A stretch of 48,809 nucleotides of DNA from assembly GCA_027624865.1 (NCBI GenBank), contig JAQBTT010000002.1, forward strand, positions 1-48,809. Reading direction: 5' to 3'. Origin of the DNA: a bacterium. GTDB taxonomy: Bacteria; Patescibacteriota; Minisyncoccia; Minisyncoccales; UBA10102. Position 1 is the first letter of the stretch, and every line of letters begins with the position of its first letter. Positions 5,076 through 47,434 of the stretch are shown here, in pieces. A program made the position numbers and the translations under genes. The notes beneath the pieces are model-generated. The model saw only the letters and a program-made list of their open reading frames with translations. It was not told the origin of the DNA and made no database searches.

Positions 5076-5357
5076 TCAAGAAGACCTGTAGCGCCGTAAG
5101 CGTTGGGCAAGGTATCTTCTTCCTGCCGTGGACTTTAAGTAGCACTCACGCTGTTTAGCGTATTCTTGATTTAGGCTTGCCTCTAAATAAATTGTTTTAA
5201 ATGGTCTTCTAAATTTTGTTGAAAAATTATAGCCCCGCTTATGTTCTTCCAATCTCCGGTTCAGGTTTTCCGTATATCCTGTGTATGTATCTCCATCCTT
5301 TATACTTTCTAGCACATAGACCCAGAAGAACATAATCGGTTTTGCCTTACGGGGCAT
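5076..5357 (-). CDS. Stand-alone GIY-YIG nuclease-domain protein
   Basis: 93-aa ORF with VYVLES...GDTYTGYTENLNRRLEEH (GIY-YIG pattern); TGA stop. Confidence 0.75.
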   Translation of the reverse strand: MPRKAKPIMFFWVYVLESIKDGDTYTGYTENLNRRLEEHKRGYNFSTKFRRPFKTIYLEASLNQEYAKQRECYLKSTAGRRYLAQRLRRYRSS

Positions 5358-6476: not shown

Positions 6477-6565
6477 AATTTCTAATTTTTAATTTAAAAA
6501 CAATTTCTAATTTAAAATTTAAAATTTATCATTGTTTTTGAATTTGAAATTTATCATTTGTTTTT
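6477..6565. repeat. AT-rich spacer repeat, family E (copy E1)
   Basis: Shares attgtttttgaatttgaaatttatcattt (29/29 nt) and tttttaatttaaaaacaatt with 47303-47434; fills the frr-rseP spacer. Confidence 0.8.
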
Positions 6566-8840: not shown

Positions 8841-8870
8841 AATAATGAATAATTATTTTGTAAGGAAGCA

Positions 8871-8935
8871 ACCCCGCCCTCTATGCCATTTAAACTGTGA
8901 TTTTTCTCTTACTTAAACAGCTTAGAGGGCGGGGT
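8871..8935. repeat. GC-clamped hairpin repeat, family B (copy B1)
   Basis: accccgccctcta...tagagggcggggt inverted arms; its loop is similar to copy B3; lies between the murA stop and the mreB start. Confidence 0.85.
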
Positions 8936-8945
8936 AACTCGGATA

Positions 8946-10220
8946 TCAAGATATCCTCGTTATATCTGCTCCCAGTTTTTGTAATCGCTCCTCTATTCTC
9001 TCATATCCTCGGTCTACTTGATAGATGTTGCTGATGGTACTTTTTCCTTCTGCCATGAGAGCTGCCATGATAAGGGCTGCTCCTCCTCGCAAATCAAATG
9101 TACCAAGGTCGTTCCCTCTCAGCTTTGTTGGTCCATTAATAATCGCTCGGTGTGGATCAGTGAAATAAATTTCAGCTCCCATCTTGTTTAACTCCTCTAA
9201 ATACTTTAACCTTCCCTCATATAGTGGATCATGCAAGAGCGTAGAACCTTTTGTTTGGGTAGCAAGTACCCCAAGTACTGATTGCAAGTCAGATGGAATA
9301 CCAGGGTAAATTAAGCTTTGGATTTTATCTATCTTTAAATTGCGCGCTGGCAAAACCATAACATCGCCCATACCGCCTCTCCCTTCTTTCACTTCAAACT
9401 CAGCACCAAAGTCCTTTAGCTTCTTGAAAAAAAACTGCAAAAACTTTAAAGGAACATTTTTTACCAGTACTTTTCCTTGGGTTCCAATTGCCATAGTAAT
9501 AAAGGTGGCAGCCTCAATGGGATCGGAAATAATAGTGTGGGAAAATCCTTTCAAGCTCTTCTTCCCTTCAATTGTTATCTCATGAAGCCCAGAAACCCTT
9601 ATCCACGCCCCCATTTTTTTCAGTGCTAGCATTAACTCTTGCACCTGGTAATCCATGTCTGCAATTTTAATTACGATACGCTCTGATTGAGACGCACAAA
9701 AAAGGAGGAGGTTCTCTGTCCCCGTAACAGAAAACTCATTTAAAATAACCGCCTTATTCTTTGGCTTCCCTGAAAACTTCAATTCAAAGCCTTGGCGCAT
9801 AGGCCTTATTACAACACCTAGCTGACCGAAAGCATCCAAATGAGTATCTATTGGGCGTGCTCCAATAATGTCTCCTCCGGGCTTAGGAAGATATATCTTT
9901 TTAAATCTTGCTAGAAGTGGTCCATACAAAAGTACAGACCCTCGAAATCGCAACATAGCCTCTTTATTAATAGTGGCAGGGTTTAAGTTCTTTGTATTAA
10001 TTTTTACACTTCGCTTCCCCATCCATTCAACCTTGGCCTTCATACTTTCTAAGATTTCTAGCATACGAAAAACATCCTCAATTAAAGGAAGGTTTTTAAT
10101 GATGCAATCTTGTTTGGTAAGAATAGTAGCGGCTAAAATTGGAAAAGCGGCATTTTTTGCCCCCATTACATCAATCTCACCCTCTAGGCGATTTCCGCCA
10201 CGAATAAGGAATTTCTCCAT
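8946..10220 (-). CDS. murA: UDP-N-acetylglucosamine 1-carboxyvinyltransferase
   Basis: 424-aa ORF with typical MurA sequence (GAKNAAFPILAATIL...); TGA stop. Confidence 0.93.
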   Translation of the reverse strand: MEKFLIRGGNRLEGEIDVMGAKNAAFPILAATILTKQDCIIKNLPLIEDVFRMLEILESMKAKVEWMGKRSVKINTKNLNPATINKEAMLRFRGSVLLYGPLLARFKKIYLPKPGGDIIGARPIDTHLDAFGQLGVVIRPMRQGFELKFSGKPKNKAVILNEFSVTGTENLLLFCASQSERIVIKIADMDYQVQELMLALKKMGAWIRVSGLHEITIEGKKSLKGFSHTIISDPIEAATFITMAIGTQGKVLVKNVPLKFLQFFFKKLKDFGAEFEVKEGRGGMGDVMVLPARNLKIDKIQSLIYPGIPSDLQSVLGVLATQTKGSTLLHDPLYEGRLKYLEELNKMGAEIYFTDPHRAIINGPTKLRGNDLGTFDLRGGAALIMAALMAEGKSTISNIYQVDRGYERIEERLQKLGADITRIS

Positions 10221-11823: not shown

Positions 11824-11914
11824 AAGAGAACTCCTCGGGAAAGATAAAGAACTATACCTGCTGTTTTCATACCCCAGATTTTCTTTTTTGTCAAAGTGCG
11901 CTATAATGTGTCGT

Positions 11915-13306
11915 ATGACTAAACGTCAGCGTACATTACTGTTTTCCTCGCTCCTTGGTCTTTTTTTTATTCTAGCTCCCTCATTTGCTCTGTATTCACA
12001 AGGATATCGGATTGATTTTCAAGGAGCAAGAATAGCAAAGACAGGTGCTTTTTATTTTAAAGTAGCCCCCTCAAGAGCAGATGTCTTTATTGATGGAAAT
12101 TTAATGAAAAAAACGGATTTCCTCTTTGGTTCTTTGCTTACAAAAAACTTCTTCCCTGAAAGTTACTTCGTTGAGATTGTAAAGGAAGGGTATCACTCCT
12201 GGCAAAAAATCCTTACTATAGAGGAGCAGCAAGTTACCGAAGCAAAGAATATTTTGTTGTTTAAGAAGAACCCTGCATTTCAAAAGCTTGCAGATGGGGT
12301 TTTACATTTTTGGATTTCTCCAAGTAAGCAATATGCAATATTAGAGAAAGCGGGAGAGAAGAAAATGCAATTGCTCAATCTTGAAACTGGGGGCACGGAG
12401 CCCTTGAAAAGAGAAGCACACAAGGGAGATAAGATTATTAATATTACATGGGCAAAGGATTCACGCCGATTCCTGCTTCGCGCCACCAGCAAAGAACAAC
12501 TCATTTACGAGGTTTGGAATATCTCAAATAATAAGCCTTGCTTTCTTATCCCTTGCAGTCTTACATATCTTGGGGAGGATATAGGAAACGTGCAATTTTC
12601 TCCAACATCACCAGAAGAGGTACTCTTCACTAAATTTCTCAATACAACGCAGGTATTGCTTACAGCGCCATACATAGAGCAAGAAATAGCAACTCCAATT
12701 GCAAATAATATTGTAGCTTTTACTAGTTATGGAGATTTTATCTTTTGGCTCGCTAGCGATGGTACACTTTGGCAGAAAGATAGTAATGGAGGTAGCGCAC
12801 CACAAATTTTTCAAGAATCAGCTTTTTTACCAAAAAAAGAAACTGATTATGAATTGAAAGTTGTTGGCGATGCTATATTAGTAAAAGAAGATACGACACT
12901 ATTTTTGCATAAGAGAGGTGACTTGAAGCGACGTGAAATCCTTTCACCTGTCTTTGAATTTGCCATTGATTCAGGTGGCACTAAAGTGGCGCTTTACAAT
13001 CAATCGGAACTATGGGTACTCTTTTTAAAGGAAGAGACAGAGCAGCCACAGCATAATGCAGGAGAGCTAACTTTGCTTACGCGATTTGCGCAATCCCCAA
13101 AACAGATTACCTGGATTGATTCCTCCTACCTTCTCTTCAGCTTAGAGAATATATTGCGTAACGTTGAAATTGACATAAGAGGCAGTCTAAACGTTGTAGA
13201 TATTGCCTCATTCCCCTCTCCAGAATTCTTTTGGAACAACGAAAAAGGCACCCTCTATATCTTAAGCAAGGGTGCCTTCTCTGTTTCCGAACAACTCGTA
13301 CGCTAG
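11915..13306 (+). CDS. Membrane-anchored protein with a PEGA-like domain and a beta-rich C-terminal region
   Basis: The ORF-track start at 11888 is TTG; the ATG at 11915 gives MTKRQRTLLFSSLLGLFFIL (signal anchor). Contains ADVFIDGN...VEIVKEGYHSW (PEGA-like). TATAAT at 11902-11907. Confidence 0.7.
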   Translation: MTKRQRTLLFSSLLGLFFILAPSFALYSQGYRIDFQGARIAKTGAFYFKVAPSRADVFIDGNLMKKTDFLFGSLLTKNFFPESYFVEIVKEGYHSWQKILTIEEQQVTEAKNILLFKKNPAFQKLADGVLHFWISPSKQYAILEKAGEKKMQLLNLETGGTEPLKREAHKGDKIINITWAKDSRRFLLRATSKEQLIYEVWNISNNKPCFLIPCSLTYLGEDIGNVQFSPTSPEEVLFTKFLNTTQVLLTAPYIEQEIATPIANNIVAFTSYGDFIFWLASDGTLWQKDSNGGSAPQIFQESAFLPKKETDYELKVVGDAILVKEDTTLFLHKRGDLKRREILSPVFEFAIDSGGTKVALYNQSELWVLFLKEETEQPQHNAGELTLLTRFAQSPKQITWIDSSYLLFSLENILRNVEIDIRGSLNVVDIASFPSPEFFWNNEKGTLYILSKGAFSVSEQLVR

Positions 13307-13307
13307 G

Positions 13308-13602
13308 TTACCGTTTCCTCCAATGCCGAGTCGCTTGGCTCCATTAAAATGTTCGCCTGCGCTCCTTAAAACCCCTCGGTTTTAATATTTCCGCCACGGG
13401 AAAGAATACTTCTCTCCCGACCCCTCTCTAGACAGTGTCGAAAGCTATCGCTTCCTCCACTGTCTAGTCGCTTGGCTCCATTAAAATGTTCGCCTGCGCT
13501 CCTTAAAACCCCTCGGTTTTAATATTTCCGCCACGGGGAGATACCCAATCTCCCCGACCCCCTCTGTGCAGACAGTGTCAGAAACTACCGTTTCCTCCAC
13601 TG
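13308..13602. repeat. Family G element: two tandem 137-bp units plus three copies of the rpsI 3' end
   Basis: Units 13329-13465 and 13466-13602 share 72 identical nt and then diverge in a hairpin. rpsI-end copies lie at 13308-13325, 13445-13465 and 13585-13602 (the real one). Confidence 0.85.
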
Positions 13603-14070
13603 TCTTGCTCTTCGAGCTCTTTTGAGTCCAAACTTCTTACGCTCGCGCATACGAGGATCTCTTGTGAGGAACTTTAGAGTTTTCATAGAGTCTCGCATCG
13701 CGGCGTCCCATTCTACGAGAACACGGGCCAACCCATGACGCACTGCCTCTGCTTGTGCTCTCATTCCACCACCGCGTACAACAATGCTTACATCAAATGT
13801 TTTTCCATCAGCCCCTCTTTCAAGGGCCTCCTTTGCGATAACCTGATACTCTTTGTCCTGAAAGTAGTCTTCAAAAGATTTTTGATTTACAACAAAACTA
13901 GTTTTCTTTGCATCCTTAATACGTATCCTGGCGACAGCAGTCTTTCTTCGCCCTGTTGCTTGCCAATATTTCCCCTCCACTTTTTTGGAAATTTCTTTTG
14001 CGCCAGCAAGAGCTTTAGCTTTTACTGCTTTTGGGGGATTTTTCTTTTTTACGATTTCTTTTTCTGCCAT
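13585..14070 (-). CDS. rpsI: Ribosomal protein uS9 (Lys-rich N-terminal extension)
   Basis: GRRKTAVARIRI...RKKFGLKRARRARQWRKR; the start at MAEKE (14070) is 4 nt after the rplM stop. Confidence 0.93.
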   Translation of the reverse strand: MAEKEIVKKKNPPKAVKAKALAGAKEISKKVEGKYWQATGRRKTAVARIRIKDAKKTSFVVNQKSFEDYFQDKEYQVIAKEALERGADGKTFDVSIVVRGGGMRAQAEAVRHGLARVLVEWDAAMRDSMKTLKFLTRDPRMRERKKFGLKRARRARQWRKR

Positions 14071-14782: not shown

Positions 14783-14916
14783 CCCAGTACTAGAAATTAG
14801 ACTTCTCCAGAAGTGCGATATATGCGACCATTGTTGATGTTTTGCTTGATGATTTCATAATAGATTAAATGTTATATTTTTGCGAGAGACAGCACTGTCT
14901 AATTTTCAGTACGGGG
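14782..14916. mobile_element. MITE-like element, family C (copy C1)
   Basis: Terminal inverted repeats ccccagtactagaaattagac / gtctaattttcagtacgggg. Flanked by TTCA on both sides, and the proximal copy forms part of the rplQ start codon. Confidence 0.7.
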
Positions 14917-15744: not shown

Positions 15745-15774
15745 GCGAAAATAAATTTATTTATTTATTTGAGC

Positions 15775-15876
15775 ACCCCGCCCTCTATGCAGTTGGACAG
15801 AATGCTTATTTTTTACTTTTCACTCTACACTAAAACATACTTCATGCCCTTTGTAAATATGCAGAGAGGGCGGGGT
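15775..15876. repeat. GC-clamped hairpin repeat, family B (copy B2)
   Basis: accccgccctctatgca...tgcagagagggcggggt; followed on the mRNA by the shared leader gctcaaataaataaataaatttattttcgc-ATG(rpoA). Confidence 0.85.
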
Positions 15877-15893
15877 AACTCGGCGCTACCTCG

Positions 15894-16418
15894 TTATCTT
15901 GAATAAAATTCAAATATTAATGATACTTCGACTGAAGGCGCAACTTGCTCAAATGAAGGAAATTGTAAAATAGTAACTTCAGGTTTTTCCTTATCAAGTG
16001 TCATCCATGCGGGAGCCTCATACTTCTTCATCCCAAGCAATGTGTTCTTAAATAAAGTTCTTTGGAGTGATGCTGTGCGAACGGTAATAACATCCCCTTT
16101 CTTTACTTCATAGGAAGGAATATCCACCTTCTTGCCATTTACCTTAAAATGACCGTGCGTGACCATTTGACGAGATTGCTTGCGCGTTGGGGCAAAGCCA
16201 GCGCGATACACAACGTTATCTAATCTTCGCTCAAGTTTCTGCAAAAAAAGCTCTGGAGAATCGCCATGGGCGCTCTTTTCCAATGCTGCCTTAACATACC
16301 CCTTAAACTGCTTTTCTCGAAGGTTATACTGACCTTTTAAGTCCTGCTTCTCTGCAAGTTGCTTTCCATATTCAGACTGCGGGCTAGGCCGTCGTTTTCG
16401 CATTACTCCCTTTTGCAT
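15894..16418 (-). CDS. rpsD: Ribosomal protein uS4 (N-terminal about 40 aa of canonical S4 absent)
   Basis: 174-aa ORF (LERRLDNVVYRAGFAPTRKQSRQMVTHGH); alignment to E. coli S4 begins near residue 45. Confidence 0.9.
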   Translation of the reverse strand: MQKGVMRKRRPSPQSEYGKQLAEKQDLKGQYNLREKQFKGYVKAALEKSAHGDSPELFLQKLERRLDNVVYRAGFAPTRKQSRQMVTHGHFKVNGKKVDIPSYEVKKGDVITVRTASLQRTLFKNTLLGMKKYEAPAWMTLDKEKPEVTILQFPSFEQVAPSVEVSLIFEFYSR

Positions 16419-16856: not shown

Positions 16857-17015
16857 AATGCTTTTACTTCGTAAAAGAAACTCGAAATTCGAATATCGAA
16901 ATACGAAACAAATTAGAAATTCTAAATTCTAATTTTCTAACCTGTTTTGAATTTTGTATTTTGGTCATTAGTATTTGTTTAGGATTTCGGATTTCGTGCT
17001 TCGGATTTCCCACCG
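16857..17015. repeat. AT-rich heptamer-periodic hairpin spacer, family D (copy D1)
   Basis: Homologous over most of its length to 44171-44313 (cgaaattcgaatatcgaaat...ggatttcggatttcgtgcttcgg). Ends with the hairpin cttttac-ttc-gtaaaag 4 nt from the rpsK ATG. Confidence 0.8.
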
Positions 17016-17476: not shown

Positions 17477-17630
17477 TTTTCTGGAAGCTCTCGGAGGCAG
17501 TTTTGCCCGCCTGCAACGCTTGATGCGTAGCATCTGCGGGCAGGCATGGTCCGCCGATGAGGCGGAAAACTGCCGAGAGTGCAACTCCCAAAATCCAGCT
17601 GGGGATTTTGAGGGGCGGTTCCTAAGAAAA
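17477..17630. repeat. Structured GC-rich repeat, family A (copy A1, with an extra nested hairpin)
   Basis: Shares gcatggtc, ccgagagtgcaRctcccaa and gaggRgcggttc blocks with 33171-33289 and 46692-46809; its stems co-vary between copies. Confidence 0.8.
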
Positions 17631-25543: not shown

Positions 25544-26221
25544 TTAGTTAACTTCTTTAATAATATTTAAAAACTCTTTTGCGTCCAAAGAAGCAGCTCC
25601 TATCAATACTCCATGCACCTTTCCCACTTTCATAATCGAAGTAATGCTTTTTGCATCTACGCTCCCGCCATACAGTATTGGAACATTTTTTCCTACAACT
25701 TTCTTCATTGCTTGGGCCATCGTAGAAATATTCCCTGGAGTAATACGTTTTCCTCCTTGCGTACTAATTGCAGAAGATGGCTCAAACACCACAAGTATAT
25801 TCTTAAAGCTCTTCATGTTCTTTGCAATCATTTGAAGTTCTCGCACATTTTCAACACATAAGATAACTTTTAATCCAGCTTGCAAAGCAGCCTCAGCTTT
25901 TGCTTGCACCATTCCTAGGGTTTCGGCAAGATACTTCTTTCGTTCAGAATGCCCCAGGATAACAAAGGTACATCCCAAGCTCTTAAGCTGAAAAGGAGAA
26001 ACTTCCCCCGTAAGAGCGCCTTTTTGCTCCCAGGAACAGTTCTGCGCCCCAATTTGTACATTCTTTGATGCTGGCAACTGGGGAATAAAAACATAGGGAG
26101 GACAAAGCACCACTGTAGCGTTATATCCTTTAGCGCCCTTTGCCACCTTTTTTGCCAACACAAAAGCGCCCCTTGATGTTAATGGGTTCATCTTCCAGTT
26201 CGCAATAATAATAGGTTTCAT
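25544..26221 (-). CDS. tpiA: Triosephosphate isomerase
   Basis: The ORF was trimmed to MKPIIIANWKMNPL...ILGHSERK...YGGSV. Its ATG overlaps the TGA of a remnant ORF (ATATGA). Confidence 0.9.
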   Translation of the reverse strand: MKPIIIANWKMNPLTSRGAFVLAKKVAKGAKGYNATVVLCPPYVFIPQLPASKNVQIGAQNCSWEQKGALTGEVSPFQLKSLGCTFVILGHSERKKYLAETLGMVQAKAEAALQAGLKVILCVENVRELQMIAKNMKSFKNILVVFEPSSAISTQGGKRITPGNISTMAQAMKKVVGKNVPILYGGSVDAKSITSIMKVGKVHGVLIGAASLDAKEFLNIIKEVN

Positions 26222-26493
26222 ATGTTTAAGAGTCCAAGCGTGATCATACTTACAATGATCCCTGCTATTATGTGCCCCAATAGCATTATTGTTAAGGGGA
26301 AAATAGCTATTAACATATAGTAATGCCACATGTTAGTACGGACACAATGGCTGCAGCCATTATGTGCCCCAATAGCATTATTGTTAAGGGAAAAATAGCT
26401 ATTAACATATAGTAATGCCACATGTTAGTACGGACACAATGGCTGCAGCCATTATAACGCCAAAAAGGATAAGAGGAAATGCCTTGCGAAACG
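26218..26493. repeat. Three tandem 92-bp units, each encoding a variant of the C-terminal TM helix of the upstream membrane-protein gene
   Basis: 26267-26358 equals 26359-26450 apart from one base (26300 g vs 26392 a). The units read ...GVIMAAAIVSVLTCGITIC*, ...GHIMAAAIVSVLTCGITIC* and ...GHIIAGIIVSMITLGLLNI*. Confidence 0.85.
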
Positions 26494-26851
26494 GTATCCC
26501 AAAAACAAAGGCAACAAGAACAGCGGTCCACGCTCCGGTAAATGGTAGTGGAATTGCTACAAACAAAACAAGAGAAAGATCTTTTAGTAATGTAAACATT
26601 TTCTCATGTCTTTTCCTGGTTCGCAAAAAGAGCCAAGTAAAGATCTTTGCAAATATTGAAAAGCGCGAAGAAAGAGTTTCTGCGATAAAGCCGAGAGAAG
26701 GCAAAAAAAGCACAGGAATCATGTTTCCTGCAATTGCTAAGAAAAAGACCTGCCAGAAAGGCAACTTATACACCAATACACCCAAAGGAATTGCCCCTCG
26801 AAGCTCTGCAATTGGAGAGGCTGCAATAAGCGCAACAAAAAGTTGTTCCAT
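26402..26851 (-). CDS. Small multi-pass membrane protein (COG2426 / small multidrug export-like, tentative)
   Basis: 149-aa ORF (MEQLFVALIAASPIAELRGAIPLGV...) with 4 hydrophobic segments. Confidence 0.75.
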   Translation of the reverse strand: MEQLFVALIAASPIAELRGAIPLGVLVYKLPFWQVFFLAIAGNMIPVLFLPSLGFIAETLSSRFSIFAKIFTWLFLRTRKRHEKMFTLLKDLSLVLFVAIPLPFTGAWTAVLVAFVFGIPFRKAFPLILFGVIMAAAIVSVLTCGITIC

Positions 26852-31397: not shown

Positions 31398-31597
31398 CCA
31401 GGTACTAGAAATTAGACTTCTCTTGACTCTGTAGTGAATTTTGGACATGCTTTCGCAAACAAAGTTTGGTCCAAAATCTACTACGGGGTTGACTTGCGAT
31501 ATATGCGACCATTGTTGGTATTTTATTTAAAGATTTCATAATGAGTTGAATATTGTGTTTTGGCGAGAAATAGCAAGGTCTAATTTTCAGTACCTGG
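31398..31597. mobile_element. MITE-like element, family C (copy C2) with a nested family F element at 31428-31488
   Basis: 20-nt TIRs ccaggtactagaaattagac / gtctaattttcagtacctgg, flanked by CATA on both sides (the proximal copy is the rplO start codon). The nested 61-nt hairpin element is flanked by a TTGAC direct repeat that is absent from C1. Confidence 0.75.
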
Positions 31598-32513: not shown

Positions 32514-33080
32514 TTATGCACCTCCCGAGGCGCCTGCTGCTTTCTTACCTTCCTTTCTTCGCACTACTTCACCAACGTAGCGAACACCTTTTCCTTTATA
32601 AGGTTCCACTGGTCGATACCTTCTGATCTTTGCTGCAAATTCACCTACCTGTTGCTTGTTGATACCAGAGACAATAACGGTATTCTTTTCCACGACACAC
32701 GTAATGCCTTCTGGCATTTTTGCTTTTACGGGGTGGGAAAATCCAAGGGAAAGGTTAATCACGTCTCCTTCCACTGCAGCGCGATACCCTGTTCCTTCTA
32801 TCTCAAGTCTCTTTTCATACCCCTCAGTTACGCCCTGTATCATATTTGCCAGGAGCGTCCTGGTAAGTCCCCACAATCCTTTTGCAAGAAAAGCTCGTTT
32901 TTTTGAAAGGTCCTCACGCAAAGAAACCTGAATGACACTTTCCTCCTTTACTACGGATACATCAGGATGCATCTCATATACAAGTTCGCCTCGAGGTCCC
33001 TTCACCTTAGCTACGTGGTCTTCCAGACTCACATCCACATTAAGTGGTACTTCAATTGGTTGTTTTCCTATCCTTGACAT
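32514..33080 (-). CDS. rplF: Ribosomal protein uL6
   Basis: 188-aa ORF (MSRIGKQPIEVP...YKGKGVRY). Confidence 0.94.
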   Translation of the reverse strand: MSRIGKQPIEVPLNVDVSLEDHVAKVKGPRGELVYEMHPDVSVVKEESVIQVSLREDLSKKRAFLAKGLWGLTRTLLANMIQGVTEGYEKRLEIEGTGYRAAVEGDVINLSLGFSHPVKAKMPEGITCVVEKNTVIVSGINKQQVGEFAAKIRRYRPVEPYKGKGVRYVGEVVRRKEGKKAAGASGGA

Positions 33081-33170
33081 AAATTTCTAATTTCTAAATC
33101 CTAATTTTAAATTAAATCCTCTCCCTTCCCGAGATCTCCCACAGGGAGACAATGACCAAATACTTTCTGT

Positions 33171-33289
33171 GAGAAATGTTGCTCTCCGGGAAGCTCTCGC
33201 AGGTGTTTTGGCATGGTCTTGAGCGAAGCGAAAGCAAAACACCGAGAGTGCAGCTCCCAAAATCCGGCTGGGGATTTTGAGGAGCGGTT
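33171..33289. repeat. Structured GC-rich repeat, family A (copy A2)
   Basis: gctctccgggaagctctcgcaggtgttttggcatggtc...caaaacaccgagagtgcagctcccaaaatccggctggggattttgaggagcggttctccgggagc; between rpsH and rplF. Confidence 0.8.
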
Positions 33290-33349
33290 CTCCGGGAGCA
33301 ATATTCCGAGCAGAACTGATTGTTTGAAATGTATTGATAATCATATTTT

Positions 33350-36167: not shown

Positions 36168-36194
36168 ATGCGAAAATAAATTTATTTATTGAGC

Positions 36195-36281
36195 ACCCCG
36201 CCCTCTATGCCGTTCAAACTGTGTAATCTTTCATTGCTCAAACAGCTTAGAGGGCGGGGTTTCGTAGCGCTTCTGCGCTAC
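36195..36281. repeat. GC-clamped hairpin repeat, family B (copy B3), plus the accessory hairpin gtagcgc-ttct-gcgctac
   Basis: accccgccctcta...tagagggcggggt at 36195-36260. The small hairpin at 36264-36281 contains the rpsC TAG stop. Shared leader gctcaataaataaatttattttcgc before the rplP ATG. Confidence 0.85.
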
Positions 36282-36910
36282 TCAAATACTTCCCCTTTAT
36301 ACAACCACACCTTCACTCCAACAGCGCCATAGGTGGTTCTTGCCTCAACAAGAGCATAATCAATAATTGCGCGTTGTGTTTGCAATGGCAAACGTCCCTC
36401 TTTCAACACTTCTCTTCTGGCAATATCCGCTCCACCCAAACGTCCTGCAATCGCAAATTTCACTCCTTCAATGCCTTTGGTGGATGAAACTTTCTGCATC
36501 ATCTGCTTCATCACACGGCGATGTGGCATTCTCTTTTCCAACTGCTGGGCAATGTTTTGCGCCACTAATGTTGCTGACTCAAAAGGATTCTTGATCTCTC
36601 GAATCTCCAAACGAACATCTTTTGCCAAAACAAACTTTTGCAGTGCCTTCTTTACAATTTCAATTCCAGAACCCCCTCTTCCAATAATTAGTCCTGGTCT
36701 TCCAGAGCTTATGATAACGGTGAGGCGTCCAGCAAATCGTTCAATCTCAATGGCTTCCAGTGAAGCTTCCTTTAGTCTTGCTTCCAAAAATTCTCGGATA
36801 CGAAAATCCTCTTCCAAAGTCTTTGCGTATGCTTTCTTCTCAACCCAACGAGAAAGCCAATCTTTGGTTTCACGAATACGAAATATTTTTGGGTGTACTT
36901 TATGTGACAT
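36278..36910 (-). CDS. rpsC: Ribosomal protein uS3
   Basis: 210-aa ORF (MSHKVHPKIFRIRETKDW...). Confidence 0.94.
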   Translation of the reverse strand: MSHKVHPKIFRIRETKDWLSRWVEKKAYAKTLEEDFRIREFLEARLKEASLEAIEIERFAGRLTVIISSGRPGLIIGRGGSGIEIVKKALQKFVLAKDVRLEIREIKNPFESATLVAQNIAQQLEKRMPHRRVMKQMMQKVSSTKGIEGVKFAIAGRLGGADIARREVLKEGRLPLQTQRAIIDYALVEARTTYGAVGVKVWLYKGEVFE

Positions 36911-36935
36911 GCGAAAATAAATTTATTTATTGAGC

Positions 36936-37054
36936 ACCCCGCCCTCTAGGCTCTATGTACTGTTGTTGAAGACTCACAGGGCAAGATTTCTTTCAATATA
37001 GCGTCTTCAAACATACAGCATAGAGGGCGGGGTTTCGTAGCGCTTCTGCGCTAC
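36936..37054. repeat. GC-clamped hairpin repeat, family B (copy B4), plus the accessory hairpin
   Basis: The same arms and the same gtagcgcttctgcgctac hairpin as B3, but a different loop. Shared leader before the rpsC ATG. Confidence 0.85.
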
Positions 37055-37567
37055 TTAAATAGCCTTTCTTCTAAAGAATCTTGCTGCTCCCTTTGGTTCT
37101 TTTTGTCGTGGAGCAATGGACTGCTTCTCCTTTGCGTAAGTTTTTGGAACCTCCTTCTTTGTGCTTGTCGCCTCAATAATCTCTTTTTGTGCGTTCATAG
37201 CTTCTCCTTTCTTTGGCTTTACCGCTTCTGTTCCTTCAATTTCATCTACAACAATAGTGATATGGGAAGTCTTCTTTTGAATCTCAAATGCTTGCCCACG
37301 AGCTCTTGGACGAAATCTTTTTAACTTTGGTCCTTCATTCACAGCAATATGTGAGATGTATAGATTAGCTGCTTTTGCTTGGAAGTTATGCACTGCGGAA
37401 GCAACAGCTGAGTTTAATGTTTTTAACACCGGCAATGCTGAATGTTTTGCAGCAAATTGAAGTAAGGACTGTGCTTCCACAACCTTCTTTCCACGAACAA
37501 GATCCACTGACATGCGAACCTTACGAGGCGCAATTCTTAAATATCTCAATGTTGCTGTTGCTTTCAT
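37055..37567 (-). CDS. rplV: Ribosomal protein uL22 with a long C-terminal extension
   Basis: The ORF was trimmed to MKATATLRYLRIAPRKVR...; about 60 extra C-terminal residues. Confidence 0.92.
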   Translation of the reverse strand: MKATATLRYLRIAPRKVRMSVDLVRGKKVVEAQSLLQFAAKHSALPVLKTLNSAVASAVHNFQAKAANLYISHIAVNEGPKLKRFRPRARGQAFEIQKKTSHITIVVDEIEGTEAVKPKKGEAMNAQKEIIEATSTKKEVPKTYAKEKQSIAPRQKEPKGAARFFRRKAI

Positions 37568-40301: not shown

Positions 40302-40319
40302 AAATGGTTTATATCTTTA

Positions 40320-40346
40320 CAACAAAACACCGGACCTAACCCGGTG
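40320..40346 (-). terminator. Terminator-like hairpin in the rplC leader (candidate attenuator)
   Basis: caccgg-gttaggt-ccggtg followed by TTTTGTTG, about 20 nt upstream of the rplC ATG and about 65 nt downstream of a promoter. Confidence 0.45.
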
Positions 40347-40409
40347 CTCAAAAAAGCTTTCGGTTAAACCCTCACTGCTCACAAGGCTAGCTTAGTGTTC
40401 ACAAAATAG

Positions 40410-40438
40410 AGTATATATCAATGACAAAAGAATGTCAA
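40410..40438 (-). promoter_or_regulatory. Sigma70-like promoter TTGACA-17-TATACT for rplC and downstream genes
   Basis: -35 at 40433-40438 and -10 at 40410-40415. Confidence 0.65.
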
Positions 40439-40588
40439 TAACAAAAAGGGTTGGGGAAGAGGAGGAAGGCTTGGAGCGGTAGCTCAACAAAGCGCATGCC
40501 CCTCCTGGACGAGTCATGTCGCCCAGTCCCGCTTTCCCTATACCATCTTTAAAATAATAAGCAAGATGATGTACGAGATGAGTTCAAA

Positions 40589-40616
40589 TGAAAAGCCCCG
40601 TTTTTCTTCACGGGGC
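40589..40616 (-). terminator. Intrinsic terminator after the Cys-rich ORF
   Basis: gccccg-tgaagaaaaa-cggggc followed by TTTTC on the minus strand. Confidence 0.75.
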
Positions 40617-40644
40617 TTTGTTCTCTCTTAAGCTATGGGGCATC

Positions 40645-40872
40645 TTATGCACTTTCTTGAGCAGCCTCTTGCATCCGCTCCTTCCGTTCCCCTTCTGTAA
40701 GTCCCCGCCCCCACCATTTAGGACAACTTCCATCAGGGCAAAGATGCACGTCAGGCTCGCTACAGGTGCCACAGAGAGACAGGCCACACCCACCACCAAC
40801 TGGGCAAGACCATTCCATTCCTCCAGTTGGCTGCGCGCATTGCCCGCAAACTCTTACCTCAGGCATCTTCAT
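40645..40872 (-). CDS. Hypothetical 75-aa Cys-rich (8 Cys, two CxxC) protein
   Basis: MKMPEVRVCGQCAQPTGGMEWSCPVGGGCGLSLCGTCSEPDVHLCPDGSCPKWW...; GGAGG 4 nt upstream; GC-rich; has its own terminator. Confidence 0.6.
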   Translation of the reverse strand: MKMPEVRVCGQCAQPTGGMEWSCPVGGGCGLSLCGTCSEPDVHLCPDGSCPKWWGRGLTEGERKERMQEAAQESA

Positions 40873-40979
40873 CCTACCTCCAAGCTACCAAGTCTAATCT
40901 ATTCATACCACTCTCATCTAAGAAATCAACTTTATTAAAAAATCACCTAAATGGCAATTCTCTCTTAGTACCCATATAT

Positions 40980-41010
40980 CAATACCACACCATGGTATGG
41001 TGTGGTATTG
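40980..41010. promoter_or_regulatory. Perfect 14-bp inverted repeat (3-nt spacer) upstream of the Cys-rich ORF
   Basis: caataccacaccat ggt atggtgtggtattg. Confidence 0.5.
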
Positions 41011-41054
41011 GTACAAGATAAAAAGTACCAGAGGTATCTGTTAATATCTTAACT

Positions 41055-41088
41055 AGAGCGCGGCCGAGAACTGTTCTCGGCCGCCCAA
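41055..41088. repeat. 34-nt GC-rich palindromic repeat R (copy 1)
   Basis: agagCgcggccgagaac t gttctcggccgcccaa; identical to 41756-41789 apart from one base. Confidence 0.85.
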
Positions 41089-41126
41089 GCTTCGCTAAGC
41101 TTAACTAGGTTTAGGAGGATTAAAAA

Positions 41127-41170
41127 CAAAAAAAGAAAGCCTCGCACAGGATTATTGCCGTGTGCGAGGC
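41127..41170 (-). terminator. Intrinsic terminator after the 106-aa ORF
   Basis: gcctcgcaca-12 nt-tgtgcgaggc followed by a long T-rich run on the minus strand. Confidence 0.85.
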
Positions 41171-41187
41171 TTTTTGAAACGCATATC

Positions 41188-41508
41188 TCATGCAGTCAAA
41201 AGAACGGGATTGCCCAAGCTGTTATGAAGCGCCTCAACGACTATTGGCGGGCTGGCCGGAACAAACACTCGTTGAAGCTTTGGAGCCTCCAAAACAGAAC
41301 CCCATGCCTTTGCTCCTTGTACCGCGCGCAAAAGTGTTCTACGAAGAGCCCTGGAAGAAGTACAAAAGATATAGGAATCTGCACCCCAAAGTCCAAACTC
41401 AAGGCCGGGAATGCGAACTATCCAAAGAAAACCGTCGTTTTCTGGAAAGAGCCATATCTCTGGCTCACTTGTTATTTCCTGAAGCTGGATGGTCAACATG
41501 GTCAACAT
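41188..41508 (-). CDS. Hypothetical 106-aa protein
   Basis: MLTMLTIQLQEITSEPEIWLFPENDGFLWIVRIPG...; GGGGAGGGA 4 nt upstream of the ATG; promoter and terminator present. Confidence 0.55.
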   Translation of the reverse strand: MLTMLTIQLQEITSEPEIWLFPENDGFLWIVRIPGLEFGLWGADSYIFCTSSRALRRTLLRAVQGAKAWGSVLEAPKLQRVFVPASPPIVVEALHNSLGNPVLLTA

Positions 41509-41555
41509 AGTATCCCTCCCCTGCTTTCTATTCGTGTGGTAAAACGCTTTCACCC

Positions 41556-41584
41556 AGATTACGCAACTTCACCGCTATAGTCAA
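41556..41584 (-). promoter_or_regulatory. Candidate promoter TTGACT-17-TAATCT
   Basis: -35 at 41579-41584 and -10 at 41556-41561, upstream of the 106-aa ORF. Confidence 0.45.
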
Positions 41585-41703
41585 CACAGCTAAACCAAAA
41601 ACCCGCCCACATGGCGATTCTGTAAAACTTGCTCCGAGCAAGGTGGGGATAACTTAGCCTGACTAAGTTTGAATAACTAAATTCGGTTTAGCTTTCTGCA
41701 ATG

Positions 41704-41738
41704 CTGGGCTGGGCTAAGACTGTCTTAGCCCAGCCCAG
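41704..41738. repeat. Perfect 17+1+17 palindrome
   Basis: ctgggctgggctaagac t gtcttagcccagcccag, with a single central T like repeat R and the TrpR-flanking palindromes. Confidence 0.85.
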
Positions 41739-41755
41739 TACGCGTTCGCCTATCC

Positions 41756-41789
41756 AGAGGGCGGCCGAGAACTGTTCTCGGCCGCCCAA
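41756..41789. repeat. 34-nt GC-rich palindromic repeat R (copy 2)
   Basis: agagGgcggccgagaac t gttctcggccgcccaa. Confidence 0.85.
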
Positions 41790-41873
41790 TGTTGCTCCCC
41801 TTGCAGAACGTACTAAGAACTTTTGAGTGGATGAGTATAAAGGAAAAAATGAGGAAATTTCCTTCTTTTATGC

Positions 41874-41908
41874 AAAAGAAAGCCCGAGTTGCCATTGCTA
41901 CTCGGGCT
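41874..41908 (-). terminator. Intrinsic terminator after the 84-aa membrane ORF
   Basis: agcccgag-12 nt-ctcgggct followed by TTCTTTT on the minus strand. Confidence 0.8.
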
Positions 41909-41953
41909 CTTGATTCTTCGTTTCTCATCTCGTCAACTGTAAAGATTCACAAA

Positions 41954-42208
41954 CTACGGCCAACCCTTCTTGGCTACTATTCGGTGGGTGATGGAACCAA
42001 ACAGTAGTCCAGCGAGTCCACCAATGAGTACGCCAACACCGATGCTGTCCCCTCTAACAGATTCAGAAAGAAGACATAGGGCAAGCATGACAAGCATGCC
42101 TAGCACCACCCCACCAAGAACTCCTAAAAGTTCTCTCGAGAAGACGTCGAAAAAAAGATGTGCGACAAAGTACAGCGGTACAGCGAGCTTTACTGGATTA
42201 TCATTCAT
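41954..42208 (-). CDS. Hypothetical 84-aa two-TM glycine-zipper membrane peptide
   Basis: MNDNPVKLAVPLYFVAHLFF...GVLGGVVLGMLVMLAL...GVGVLIGGLAGLLFG...; AAGGGAG 6 nt upstream of the ATG, downstream of a TATAAT promoter. Confidence 0.6.
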   Translation of the reverse strand: MNDNPVKLAVPLYFVAHLFFDVFSRELLGVLGGVVLGMLVMLALCLLSESVRGDSIGVGVLIGGLAGLLFGSITHRIVAKKGWP

Positions 42209-42251
42209 GATAACTCCCTTCCCAATCATAGGATCACTATCGTGTCTTGCC

Positions 42252-42279
42252 ATTATACCTATTCTCTCTTGTAATTCAA
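42252..42279 (-). promoter_or_regulatory. Sigma70-like promoter TTGAAT-16-TATAAT
   Basis: -10 at 42252-42257 and -35 at 42274-42279. Confidence 0.6.
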
Positions 42280-42295
42280 TGAAGGCTACGCTACC

Positions 42296-42320
42296 AAAAA
42301 ACCGCCCCGAAAGGGGCAGT
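42296..42320 (-). terminator. Short intrinsic terminator directly after rpsJ
   Basis: GCCCC-tttc-GGGGC followed by GGTTTTTT on the minus strand. Confidence 0.6.
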
Positions 42321-42346
42321 TCTTTCAAACTAAGCTTAGCTTAGTT

Positions 42347-44313: not shown

Positions 44314-46452
44314 TTATCTCCTCTTACCGTCTATTATCTCTTGCGCAATATTTACTGGTACCTCCTCGTAGGTATCGAACTCCATAGTAAAGGTTCCGCG
44401 CCCTTCAGTCAAGGACCTTAGGTTGGTCGCATACCCAAACATCTCAGCTAATGGAATCTTTACATTCACTACCTTCAAGTTTACCCTATCAAACGTTTCA
44501 TCAATCTTGCCTCTTCGCGATGATAAATCTCCAATAACATCTCCAAGAAAATCAGGAGGAATCACTACCTCAAGACTCATCACAGGTTCAAGGAGCATTG
44601 CTCCTGCTTTCTTTGCTGCTGATTGAAAGGCAATGGAGGCTGCAATCTTAAACGCAAATTCAGAGGAGTCTACTTCGTGAAAGGAACCATCATATAGCGT
44701 TGCCTTAATATCAATCATGGGGTACCCAGCTACCACTCCCTTATCCATTGCTTCCTTAATCCCCTTTTCTACAGCTGGAATATATTCGTGAGGAATTGAA
44801 CCACCTTTAATTTCATTTACATACTCAAATCCTTCCCCTCTCTCCTTTGGAGCAACGCGCAAGAGAACGTGTCCATACTGACCACGACCTCCTGACTGAC
44901 GTATGTACTTTTCCTCAGCTTGACCATCTGTCTTAATCGTCTCTTTGTATGCCACCTGAGGTCTCCCAACGTTTGCTGTAACATCAAACTCCCGCTTCAT
45001 TCTATCTACGATAATTTCCAAGTGCAGCTCCCCCATCCCAGAGATAATAGTATCTCCGGTTTCCTGGTCAGAGGAAACTCGCAATGTTGGATCCTCATCC
45101 GACAAACGTTTAAGCGCCATTCCCATCTTCTCTTGGTCAACTTTTGTTGCAGGTTCTATGCGAACTGAGATAACAGGCTCAGGGAAGCTAATTTGCTCAA
45201 GTAAAATGGGACTGCCCTCATCAGCCAACGTATGCCCTGTAGTGGTGTTTTTAAGGCCCACAGTGGCAGCAATATCTCCTGCAAAGAGTTCATCTACATC
45301 TTCTCTCTCGTTTGCATGCATTCTTAAGATTCGAGCAATTCTCTCTTTCTCTCCAGTGGTAACGTTTAGTACGTATGAACCCTTTTTTAACGTTCCAGAG
45401 TACACTCGAAAGTATGTTAAGGCACCTACAAAAGGATCAGTTGCAACCTTAAAAGCAAGAGAGGAAAAGGGTTCATCATCCGCAGCATGGCGCTCAATCT
45501 CCTCACCAGATTTTGGATTAATTCCCTTAATGGGTGGAACATCTACGGGAGAAGGAAGGTAATCTACTACTCCATCTAGCATAAGTTGGACTCCTTTGTT
45601 TTTTAAAGAAGAACCTACAAAGACAGGGACCAACTTGTTTGCCAGCGTTGCTTCTCGCAATACCTTTTTAATCTCGTCTGCTGGGATTTCCTCACCTGCA
45701 ATATATTTATTCATTAAGTTCTCATTTTCCCCAGCTACCTTCTCCATGAGCTTCTCTCGCCATTCCTTTGCTTTTTCTGTAAGGTCCGCTGGAATCTCTT
45801 CTTCTACAATTGTTTCTCCAAAGACTCCATCAAAAGAGTAAGCCTTCATTTTGATGAGATCTATGCACTTGGTGAACTTATCTTCCTCTCCATTGGGAAA
45901 TTGCACTGCAACAGCATTTTTGGTAAGTTTCTCTCCAATGGAAGCAAAGCTCTTTTCAAAGGAAGCTCCCATACGATCCAACTTGTTGATAAAGCAGATG
46001 CGGGGAACTTCAAACTTATCAGCCTGACGCCATACGGTTTCTGACTGGGGTTCCACTCCCGCTACCCCATCAAAAAGCACTACAGCTCCATCCAATACTC
46101 GAAGTGAGCGTTGTACCTCTACGGTAAAATCAATATGCCCTGGGGTATCAATAATATTAATACGATATTCGTGTTCTTTTCTGCGTTTTTCTGCGTCCTG
46201 GTCTGCGTTTTTCTGCGTGCCAACGTAAGTTGGCAACCAAAAGCATGTAGTAGCAGCTGAGGTAATGGTAATACCTCGCTCTCGTTCTTGAGCCATCCAG
46301 TCCATAACAGCGGCGCCTTCATGCACCTCCCCTATTTTGTGTGAAATACCTGTATAAAACAAAATACGCTCGGTAGTAGTCGTCTTACCAGCATCAATAT
46401 GAGCAATAATACCGATATCTCTTATTTTTTCAATTGGATATACGCGTGGCAT
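44314..46452 (-). CDS. fusA: Elongation factor G
   Basis: 712-aa ORF ([25 protein letters not shown]). Confidence 0.97.
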
Positions 46453-46492
46453 ATTAGTTATGAGTATTAAATACTTGCGAATGTTGATGTAA

Positions 46493-46561
46493 GAGAGGGG
46501 TCGGGAGAGAAGTATTCTCTCCCGTGGCGGAAATATTAAAACCGAGGGGTTTTAAGGAGCG
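46493..46561. repeat. Family G core (copy G3), inverted relative to the rpsI-locus copies
   Basis: The reverse complement matches cgctccttaaaacccctcggttttaatatttccgccacgggaRagaatacttctctcccgacccctctc of 13360-13430. Confidence 0.85.
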
Positions 46562-46573
46562 AGGGACGAGCGA

Positions 46574-46636
46574 CGCGTCGATATGGGCGATAATCCCAAT
46601 ATCACGGATTTGCTCTATAGGATATTGTCTTGGCAT
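46574..46636 (-). pseudogene. Orphan diverged copy of the first 21 codons of fusA
   Basis: [21 protein letters not shown] versus the real [21 protein letters not shown]. Many synonymous differences; it runs into the G3 element and a stop codon. Confidence 0.8.
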
Positions 46637-46638
46637 AT

Positions 46639-46680
46639 AGGAATTAGGAATTAGGTTGTAGGTTGTAGGTTGTAGGAGGC
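46639..46680. repeat. Six tandem heptamers (AGGAATT x2, AGGTTGT x3, AGGAGGC)
   Basis: Read directly from the sequence. The same AGGTTGT x3 tract occurs inside gatA at 1686-1720. Confidence 0.9.
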
Positions 46681-46691
46681 GAGGCAATGAA

Positions 46692-46809
46692 TTTTTAACA
46701 AGCTCGCGCAGGCGATTTGGCATGGTCTCCGAGCTTGCCGAGGAGAAAACTTCCGAGGGTGCAGCTCCCAATTTGCGCTGGCGAATTGAGGAGCGGTTCT
46801 CAAGAAAAC
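46692..46809. repeat. Structured GC-rich repeat, family A (copy A3)
   Basis: gcatggtc, ccgagggtgcagctcccaa and gaggagcggttc blocks are conserved. The distal hairpin is rewritten as caatttgc-gctg-gcgaattg. Confidence 0.75.
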
Positions 46810-46834
46810 AGCATCCAAGCATCATCTCCATCCC

Positions 46835-47302: not shown

Positions 47303-47434
47303 ATAACTTTTATTGCGTAAAAGAAATTTCTAATTTCAAATTTTTAATTTAAAAACAATTCACTAATTTCTAATTTTAAAATTGAATATTTGAAATTGTT
47401 TTTGAATTTGAAATTTATCATTTAAAATTTATAC
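47303..47434. repeat. AT-rich spacer repeat, family E (copy E2)
   Basis: Shares two long blocks with 6477-6565; ends with cttttat-tgc-gtaaaag 4 nt from the rpsG ATG. Confidence 0.8.

Follow-up and report, generated by a model that had tools for sequence, protein, structure and literature searches.

A small non-coding element carrying target gene ends in Patescibacteria: probable site-specific insertion at rpsI and fusA

Integrative elements occupy the 3′ ends of tRNA and other genes, where gene-less forms, the cis-mobilizable elements (CIMEs), form tandem arrays by accretion. Streptococcal integrative and conjugative elements (ICEs) reportedly use rpsI, rpmG, rplL and tRNA genes, and a repeat that runs from the T-loop to the 3′ end of a tRNA gene is the identity block of P4-type tyrosine integrases. 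The CTX phage is said to follow another route, in which a folded, single-stranded attP hairpin recombines with dif by means of the host's XerCD; elements of this type are integrative mobile elements exploiting Xer (IMEXs). The present analysis concerns a tandem repeat downstream of rpsI in a 48,809-nt contig (JAQBTT010000002.1; the whole of this stretch is called the window) from a bacterium of the candidate phyla radiation (CPR, or Patescibacteria). The repeat probably consists of two tandem insertions of a small (~110-200 nt, longest 457), non-coding, non-autonomous, site-specific integrative element, of which a further copy lies beside fusA.

The element resembles ICEs and CIMEs in several respects. 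The gene-end copy that a unit carries keeps the gene intact, and the native end comes to lie beyond the element as a direct repeat; at tRNA genes the repeat spans the T-loop to the 3′ end; arrays form via a regenerated site; and both rpsI and rpmG are targeted. Direct repeats holding the target gene end were found in the window (rpsI-end copies 1-3 and two fusA starts) and at 132 of the 157 evaluable copies (84%) among the database matches listed, the scope to which all family counts given here refer and which makes them lower bounds. Unlike ICEs and CIMEs, however, the units are 110-200 nt long and geneless, a single structured core goes with more than 40 targets, and an inverted complement of the target is present in each unit. 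The units have no linked integrase: neither an integrase inside them nor a cognate full-length element was found in 8-15 kb per locus. Instead of one or few attachment sites, tRNA genes of 29 anticodon types serve as targets, along with at least 20 protein genes.

The order of parts is that of the CTX-phage type, namely target copy, spacer, inverted target copy, body and target copy (T-spacer-T′-body-T), with tandem arrays; the arrangement a-b-(x)-a′-core-tail-a-b was found throughout, where a is a conserved 10-16 nt motif near the gene end, b is the remainder of the gene end and a′ is the inverted complement. In the CTX phage, a hairpin of the element mimics the duplex target and the enzyme is encoded by the host and acts in trans, two properties that the present units would share. 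They differ in their many coding and tRNA targets, which are T-loops and coding motifs with no common junction sequence rather than dif, in a spacer that is a functional gene end, and in being 50 times smaller. The feature is closest to integrase-type elements and to CTX-type hairpin integration, and falls within neither definition.

Structure of the rpsI and fusA loci

The minus strand of the window carries a ribosomal-protein super-operon of a CPR bacterium. Its S7 and S9 proteins are 79-92% identical to proteins of Patescibacteria metagenome-assembled genomes (MAGs), and the more distant named homologues are those of Wildermuthbacteria (S9 59-64%, S7 68-79%). The target gene rpsI (open reading frame (ORF) 13585-14070, minus) encodes ribosomal protein S9, as indicated by the Pfam family Ribosomal_S9 on the identical protein, and its homologues all end in RARRARQWRKR. 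Tandem Repeats Finder places the repeat at 13309-13605 (period 137, 2.1 copies, 87% matches). In rpsI sense, the order is gene-end copy 1, unit 1, copy 2, unit 2, copy 3, one base and the stop codon of a convergent ORF; the last seven codons of rpsI are present three times, separated by units of 140 and 137 nt. In particular, copy 1 (AGACAGTGGAGGAAACGGTAG, 13585-13605, minus) is the real end in use (RQWRKR and stop; T1), copy 2 (AGACAGTGGAGGAAGCGATAG, 13445-13465, minus) has two synonymous changes, and copy 3 (CGGCATTGGAGGAAACGGTAA, 13308-13328, minus; T2) encodes RHWRKR with a synonymous AGA>CGG change and a TAA stop, separated by 1 nt from the stop codon (13304-13306) of a convergent ORF (11888-13306, plus). 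The threefold gene end with intervening units had been noted in the preliminary description of this DNA and now has exact coordinates; the feature ends at 13605 rather than at 13602 as given there.

Both units lie on the minus strand. Unit 1 (140 nt, 13466-13605) includes gene-end copy 1 (13585-13605) and continues through its complementary arm a′ (13570-13585), a junction AGAGGGGGT (13557-13565), a variable hairpin H2 (13534-13556), an invariant segment TGGCGGAAATA with hairpin H3 (TTAAAACC GAGG GGTTTTAA) and GGAGCG (13497-13533), and a tail hairpin ending GCGACT (13466-13496). Unit 2 (137 nt, 13329-13465) has the same parts: gene-end copy 2 (13445-13465), a′ (13430-13445), junction (13420-13429), H2 (13397-13419), invariant segment (13360-13396) and tail (13329-13359). 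Folded as DNA, each unit forms four hairpins, where two had been described; ΔG is -32.4 kcal/mol (z -7.9) for unit 1 and -31.4 kcal/mol (z -8.6) for unit 2. Covariance-model scores are 84 bits for unit 1, 88 bits for unit 2 and 90 bits for the fusA copy. Three further observations of the preliminary description were borne out by inverted repeats and folds or by direct comparison: 72 nt are identical between the units (13329-13400 = 13466-13537; none matched in 100 shuffles), one hairpin differs between them yet remains paired (GGGGAGAT/ATCTCCCC versus GGGAGAGAAG/CTTCTTTCCC), and an arm in each unit is complementary to the gene end, forming a hairpin whose loop holds the stop codon.

Each arm a′ tracks the gene-end copy next to it on the side of the gene (AAAC/GTTT in unit 1, AAGC/GCTT in unit 2), which argues that gene end, a′, core and tail travel as one unit. 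Further, the H2 of unit 2 is that of the fusA copy, and unit 1 has an H2 identical to the one in an element at the 3′ end of rpsG in a related MAG (L196); modules are also shuffled, with unit 2 pairing the H2 of the fusA copy with the tail of unit 1. Because each H2 matches a different element, the units are not simple duplicates of each other. The second unit may stem from a further integration event, or from unequal crossing-over after which sequence was exchanged with another copy. Two other assemblies of this S9 gene (L054, L055) end ~50 nt past the rpsI stop, inside unit 1, where the shared core begins, so that the count of two units rests on a single contig; when S9 and EF-G were looked up as exact proteins, every contig returned either broke in the repeat or had the identical structure. 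The element sharing its H2 with unit 1 (L196:1660-1790, MAG JAUYJZ01) has the displaced gene end FAHFAW-stop behind it, and the rpsI site of the same MAG is empty (L184).

The preliminary description grouped the two rpsI units as a family (G) but left unlinked a third core in the window, at 46492-46561, where the 5′ end of fusA is duplicated. A 35-mer of the core recurs at 46521-46555 on the opposite strand, and 70 nt are 99% identical to unit 2. The second target gene, fusA (elongation factor EF-G; ORF 44314-46452, minus), has an element-borne part (T1) comprising its first 21 codons (46390-46452, minus) and ~40 nt of 5′ leader, with the a′-paired part at 46392-46413. The element body (46464-46574, plus) lies between rpsG and fusA and consists of an a′ that is an imperfect complement of codons 14-21 (46464-46489, plus), the core (46492-46561, plus), and a tail ending ...GAGCGAC (46562-46574, plus). 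Behind it stands the displaced native fusA 5′ end (T2, 46575-46636, minus), which encodes 21 residues and was recovered by tblastn as a duplicate with an E value of 9.5e-10. The core is antisense to the gene because fusA was struck at its 5′ end; the two loci have the same polarity, with the functional gene part, complementary arm, core, tail ..GCGAC and displaced gene part in that order.

Over 20 aligned codons, T2 and the functional fusA start have 12 synonymous and 2 non-synonymous codon differences. When the ends of all window ORFs were compared by tblastn, the fusA start was the sole significant duplicate, the rpsI-end copies scored weakly (E 0.13 and 0.67), and the other repeat families of the window showed no gene-end duplication. 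A pseudo-ORF (46454-46831, minus) starts upstream of the displaced fusA start (46575-46636), runs in frame through T2 and then through the element, and stops with a TAA 1 nt ahead of the real fusA ATG; this adjacency may provide translational coupling that keeps fusA expressed after insertion.

Comparison with related genomes shows that the units are insertions. In five relatives identified by S9 (80-87% identity, same gene order), the rpsI stop lies 1-6 nt from that of the convergent gene, with no element. Across lineages, the number of units at rpsI varies, as the preliminary description had suggested examining: the site is empty in L177-182 and L184-189, holds one unit in L001, L003, L011, L012 and L045, and holds two in the window and L074. 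Copy 3 and its downstream flank are colinear with empty sites (L177-182, L186-189; CGTCAGTGGAGGAAGAGATAA-T-TTAGTGCAC... versus CGGCATTGGAGGAAACGGTAA-C-CTAGCGTAC... in the window), and the 277 nt at 13329-13605 are therefore inserted and copy 3 is the displaced native end. In L183 (1960-2000), rpsI ends in ...CGATAGCTTTCGAC (AAACGATAG CTTTCGAC) and is followed by native flank; this end matches the window's copy-2/a′ junction at 14 of 14 nt and is probably the deletion scar of an element.

The fusA site is likewise empty in the closest relatives (S7 92% identical; L190-195), which have a 6-nt rpsG-fusA spacer. Their fusA starts share with T2 of the window sequence blocks (CAATATCC.ATAGA, AATCCGTGATATTGG) that are absent from the functional copy, and overall their native starts, MPRQYPIERIRDIG, resemble T2 more than T1; the functional fusA start is thus the imported one. 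Moreover, across 21 T1/T2 pairs with 339 codons, 207 codons are identical, 93 differ synonymously and 39 non-synonymously, and nucleotide differences at the three codon positions number 29, 23 and 117. Since neutral decay of a duplicate would give ~1:1:1.7, most of the divergence accumulated while both copies worked as gene ends in different lineages, and the pattern fits two alleles under protein-level selection, not post-duplication decay. At T-loop sites of many tRNA species the junctions are precise, the native GGTTC/RAWTCC meeting the tail as AGTGA/RAWTCC; a fixed junction beside a conserved, non-homologous tetranucleotide argues for cut-and-join at a defined bond, not general recombination.

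Family size, targets and unit structure

A search for the core beyond this locus, which the preliminary description had proposed, yielded at least 171 copies, at least 147 of them non-redundant, in many CPR lineages. An exact core 20-mer matched 51 loci in one-genome-per-species GTDB contigs, two by chance and 49 truly, the latter essentially all in Patescibacteria MAGs of many classes, and a degenerate 24-mer matched at least 120 metagenome loci. No listed copy contains an ORF. The flanking repeats have a median length of 32 nt (range 14-110), and the unit length, taken as the distance between successive repeat starts, has a median of 175 nt (range 109-457). Virus contigs scanned with a core 18-mer gave only two chance matches inside coding sequence. 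At the gathering threshold, Rfam yields only two tRNAs in the whole window; Rfam 15, including its self-cleaving ribozymes and mobile-element RNAs, has no match to the units; even with E values up to 10 allowed, the region 13250-13660 gave nothing but a chance hit to IhtA, whose 15 bits fall short of the gathering score of 76. No matching description came up in the literature, whether it was searched by subject or with the core sequence. The family is apparently undescribed, as judged from Rfam and the literature searched, and widespread in CPR/Patescibacteria.

Targets comprise tRNA 3′ ends (59 copies, the 29 anticodon types mentioned above), protein 3′ ends (~43) and, with an antisense core, protein 5′ ends (~15). 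Among the protein genes, rpsI is the commonest, and the others include rpsG, rplK, rplR, rpmG, fusA, gyrB, gap, pgk, clpP, rnhA, dinB, a deoC-like gene and a Mur-ligase-like gene; fusA, rplK, rnhA and dinB are among those entered at the 5′ end. The repeats begin in highly conserved motifs (PQ(F/W)SKR, TLMG, GKANPAP, AHIDAGK, WYDNEWGY, GNPGPAG and the T-loop) and extend to the stop or start codon, and in the 3′ class the stop codon stands at a nearly constant 55-62 nt ahead of the core anchor. Arrays occur elsewhere, at fusA (L029, two units), rnhA (L077) and gyrB (L082), and with diverged second units in L074 and L161. Products of decay include a truncated unit (L040), the scar in L183 and a stop codon within T2 of L173.

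On the core strand, a unit reads a, b, a′, core and tail, with b extending to the stop codon or, in antisense genes, back to the start codon. A terminator-like hairpin sometimes stands between b and a′; in tRNA-type units it stands between the tRNA and the core. The core consists of RGGGGTCGGG, the variable hairpin H2, CCCGTGGCGGAAATA, hairpin H3 and RGAGCG, and the tail forms a variable hairpin whose last nucleotides are ..GCGAC or, at tRNA T-loop sites, ..AGTGA. The arm a′, which lies 4-6 nt 5′ of the core, is the inverted complement of the 10-16 nt with which the repeat begins; its match to T1 is perfect or near-perfect over 10-16 nt in most copies and poorer to T2, and its complementarity exceeds the 95th percentile of shuffles in 69% of copies. 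In an alignment of 43 cores GTGGCGGAAATATTAAAACC does not vary, in part because the search pattern demanded it. The covariation that the preliminary description proposed to test was found: in H2, five of eight pairs show double changes and 98% of cells are paired, a result equalled by none of 500 shuffles. H3 covaries in a diverged copy (L005b; CCAGAAACC/GGTTTCTGG). Circularly permuted cores, in which H2 is open and closes around H3 (L006, L007, L023), argue for a three-way junction in which the a:a′ helix is the open arm. The gene-sense strand of the units folds more stably by 4-5 kcal/mol.

Several proposals about the fold were discarded. Enrichment of the d(GCGAAGC) mini-hairpin in tails came to only 5 of 45, and neither tRNA mimicry by the reverse-complement core nor hammerhead, twister, pistol or hairpin ribozymes gave a match when compared by eye with their consensus sequences.

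Some copies depart from the common plan. L019, L064, L094 and L131 are the same, with a tRNA-like T2 (..CCCCTTGGGACTACCA), a long a′ and no upstream tRNA by ARAGORN; an upstream tmRNA-like gene may have escaped detection, or T1 may have been lost. Nested remnants lie between tail and T2 in L028 (a piece of a second tRNA 3′ end), L008, L025, L031, L050, L070 and L080, and in several tRNA-Tyr-type sites the T-loop is split by TAGCGAAGCG or TACAAGCGAAGC. Both observations suggest older insertions or earlier flanks that were carried over.

Proposed mechanism and rival explanations

The preliminary description had proposed serial site-specific integration in which each element brings its own gene end, and the results support it; the findings named there as contradicting it did not appear. 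Under the proposed mechanism, the a-b segment of a unit would recombine precisely with its counterpart in the chromosome, and the unit would enter there at the left edge of a. The gene would then read on into the element-borne T1 and stay functional, and the native T2 would be pushed behind the element. As T1 is again a complete target, further entries could follow and build arrays, with the newest unit adjoining the gene. In the window, two units would have entered rpsI 21-23 nt before its stop codon and one would have entered fusA after codon 21. The intermediate may be a folded single strand or a small circle, in which a:a′ would form a duplex copy of the target; a′ may help to present or select the target, and the enzyme would be supplied in trans. 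The order T-spacer-T′-body-T, as left by CTX-phage hairpin integration, favours integration of such a circle or folded single strand.

Several results weigh against this mechanism. No recombinase, transposase or reverse transcriptase was found inside any of the at least 171 copies, and among the 148 neighbouring ORFs of a first batch only housekeeping Pfam families recur, with no recombinase enriched; the preliminary description had looked to a recombinase that co-varies with the element, and none was linked to it. No circular or excised form was observed. The use of one core on dozens of unrelated targets has no parallel among the characterised tyrosine and serine integrases, and the acquisition of a new T with its matching a′ is left unexplained by the model. 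Against that gap stand identical core-plus-tail modules at different targets within one genome, as at a permease 3′ end (L010) and rpsI (L012) of the same MAG and in unit 2 and the fusA copy of the window. The repeat in L068 spans all native downstream sequence up to a′, and L028 carries a remnant of another tRNA end; these two copies would fit a duplication made by the insertion better than an element-borne T. T1 and T2 are 100% identical in several copies (92 nt in L033), and L033, L068 and L028 fit either insertion-made duplication or later homogenisation. Some copies have no detectable T1 or T2 (L009, L019, L007, L023). Finally, G-T outnumber A-C mismatches in a:a′ by 36 to 20 in over-extended alignments, and this test of strand is not clean.

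Other searches for an enzyme or a larger parent were also negative. None of the at least 171 copies has cargo above ~350 nt; repeats sought within 5 kb on each side of weakly flanked copies revealed no autonomous copy; and a copy whose core is cut in the H3 loop (L016) has ordinary genes next to it and no second half-core. Window ORFs of no assigned function (40588-42328 and others) have no recombination-related Pfam matches. A small GIY-YIG protein is encoded at 5076-5357, without a link to the element.

Spread by homologous recombination alone is an unlikely account. After a rare founding event, a unit would move as transforming DNA, with the gene body and T1 as left arm and T2 as right arm, and the core and a′ would serve uptake, stability or termination. 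CPR bacteria are thought to take up DNA, and this account agrees with the foreign T1 and native T2 at the window's fusA, with T1/T2 differences that are those of diverged functional alleles, with the absence of an enzyme linked to any listed copy, and with the sharp end of T1/T2 identity at the stop codon in recent copies (L033, L010), as recombination with an element-free allele would give. However, it is opposed by the single fixed phosphodiester junction in the T-loops of many tRNAs, beside the conserved, non-homologous AGTGA, and it leaves unexplained the compensatory or wobble changes that keep a′ complementary to T1 (L045 versus L173, and the window units), the invariant core, the founding of more than 40 targets and the presence of one core module at different targets in a genome. 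Plain homologous recombination, with T2 as right arm, probably contributes to spread between genomes. A displaced gene end is also reportedly found in Allomyces, where a homing endonuclease gene in atp6 brings a foreign C-terminal segment and the resident pseudo-end lies downstream; in both cases a conserved site of an essential gene is invaded, a diverged carried end rescues it and the old end remains, but the present units encode no endonuclease and have a structured core and complementary arm instead. An origin as the decayed remains of larger, integrase-carrying elements, which would have lost their internal genes and left attL-attR scars as in the CIMEs of streptococcal ICEs, would account for the att-like direct repeats, the tRNA and rpsI/rpmG-type targets, the T-loop-to-3′-end repeats and the tandem accretion; yet a total lack of kilobase-size cargo or partial integrases in at least 171 copies, a unit size narrowly spread around 175 nt, one conserved core for dozens of targets where an integrase family normally has one or few, and the structure, covariation and permuted forms of a compact functional unit make this origin highly improbable.

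Even less probable is a cis-acting RNA beside highly expressed genes (a 3′ stabiliser, terminator, processing signal or small RNA), with the duplicated ends as by-products. The a:a′ hairpin does have the stop codon inside it, and compensatory changes on the sense strand maintain its pairing; a good many of the targets are highly expressed genes, and tRNA-type units have terminator-like hairpins. Yet the core is antisense at the 5′-end targets (fusA, rplK, rnhA, dinB), those terminator-like hairpins separate the tRNA from the core, pairing of a′ with the tRNA T-arm should hinder tRNA folding, close relatives lack the element, and Rfam has no match. The least probable of the rivals is the one named in the preliminary description, a local tandem duplication of the rpsI-downstream sequence by slippage or unequal crossing-over with gene conversion and no mobile element. 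Units that lie head to tail and share 72 identical nt are what it predicts, and unequal crossing-over between gene-end repeats could gain or lose units once one exists. As the origin of the element it is refuted by the core at no fewer than 147 places beside other duplicated gene ends, by relatives with empty rpsI sites, by H2 sequences that differ between the units at many positions and each match an element elsewhere (the fusA copy; L196), and by the AGA/CGG synonymous arginine switch that sets copy 3 apart from copies 1 and 2.

Described small repeats share some of these features. MITEs (miniature inverted-repeat transposable elements), repetitive extragenic palindromes and bacterial interspersed mosaic elements (REP/BIME), Correia elements, the repeat units of pneumococcus (RUP) and the palindrome-associated transposable elements (PATEs) of the insertion sequence (IS) families IS200/IS605 are likewise short, non-coding, multi-copy, hairpin-rich, non-autonomous and found at gene boundaries. 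Unlike these, the units have no terminal inverted repeats, a flanking repeat made of 14-110 nt of gene end, and conserved intragenic targets. In place of the terminal inverted repeats and short fixed target duplication of MITEs, their ends are the gene end and ..GCGAC/..AGTGA and the repeat is often diverged; hairpins are present as in IS200/IS605 PATEs, but the flanking repeats are long and no common tetra- or pentanucleotide stands left of the junction. A diversity-generating retroelement was rejected, the differences being third-position, of all kinds and not confined to adenine, with no reverse transcriptase among the 148 neighbours; an integron attC reading was also rejected.

Returning to site-specific integration, a possible though tentative extension is a natural programmable system, in which a′ on a three-way-junction scaffold would pair with the target and direct a trans-acting CPR recombinase or nuclease, the recoded end would rescue the gene, and swapping a-b and a′ would retarget the scaffold. 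Such a system would account for the use of a single core at more than 40 targets and for the occurrence of identical cores at different targets of the same genome. Guide-directed mobile systems are known, namely the bridge or seek RNAs of IS110/IS1111 and the omega-RNAs of TnpB/IscB, and as in these a target-complementary stretch stands beside a structured scaffold with many targets per scaffold, which may here act as a guide. Unlike them, the units have no IS110 or TnpB/IscB gene within or nearby, and those systems leave no long gene-end duplication; in particular, the recombinase gene (DEDD/serine) and 2-nt core repeat of IS110/IS1111 are replaced by the absence of any ORF and by long flanking repeats. 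A TnpB-like variant, with a scaffold and T2 as guide and T1 recoded for immunity, was dropped as not general, T1 and T2 being the same in many copies.

If the integration mechanism holds, it would represent a selfish-DNA strategy without earlier description in the sources searched, in which a ~150-nt geneless element colonises, throughout a bacterial superphylum, those sites in essential genes and tRNAs that are most conserved, and pays its way by a spare gene end. It would also imply that CPR bacteria possess a recombination activity that acts in trans on many targets; this activity may be guided by base pairing and would then be a candidate tool for the insertion of small payloads. For CPR genomics, assemblies break at rpsI and tRNAs, and pseudo gene ends and read-through pseudo-ORFs arise that annotators will miscall. 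The foreign-allele fossils are datable and can serve as markers of gene flow, and the newly transformable Saccharibacteria offer a test bed.

Other repeats in the window

Apart from the element, the window contains several other repeats. A ~50-60-nt repeat, CCGAGAGTGCARCTCCCAAAATCC.GCTGGGGATTTTGAGG.GCGGTTC, with an internal hairpin occurs in ribosomal-operon spacers at 17573-17621, 33242-33290 and 46744-46800; it is also present in the rpsG-fusA spacers of L196 and L197, and its rpsG-fusA copy is conserved in relatives. An inverted pair, ACCCCGCCCTCTATGC ... GCATAGAGGGCGGGGT, brackets short spacers between ribosomal-protein genes at 8870-8955, 15748-15896, 36168-36288 and 36909-37061. Many spacers upstream of ribosomal-protein genes hold heptamer arrays of TAGGTTG repeats and AT-rich, AATTTCT-type repeats (1685-1717 and 46645-46677; 6477-6565, 16877-17009, 33080-33113 and 47324-47433). 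A 92-bp tandem repeat at 26252-26455 (2.1 copies, 98% identity) overlaps ORFs 25544-26329 and 26402-26851 at their ends. In the S10 operon, ~2 kb (40302-42346) inserted between rpsJ and rplC is occupied by small ORFs without Pfam matches, 27-nt inverted repeats (41060-41086 and 41759-41785) and several terminator-like hairpins. A 99-nt repeat with 82% identity stands upstream of rplQ and of another operon segment (14814-14912 and 31495-31593), and may be a duplicated leader or promoter.

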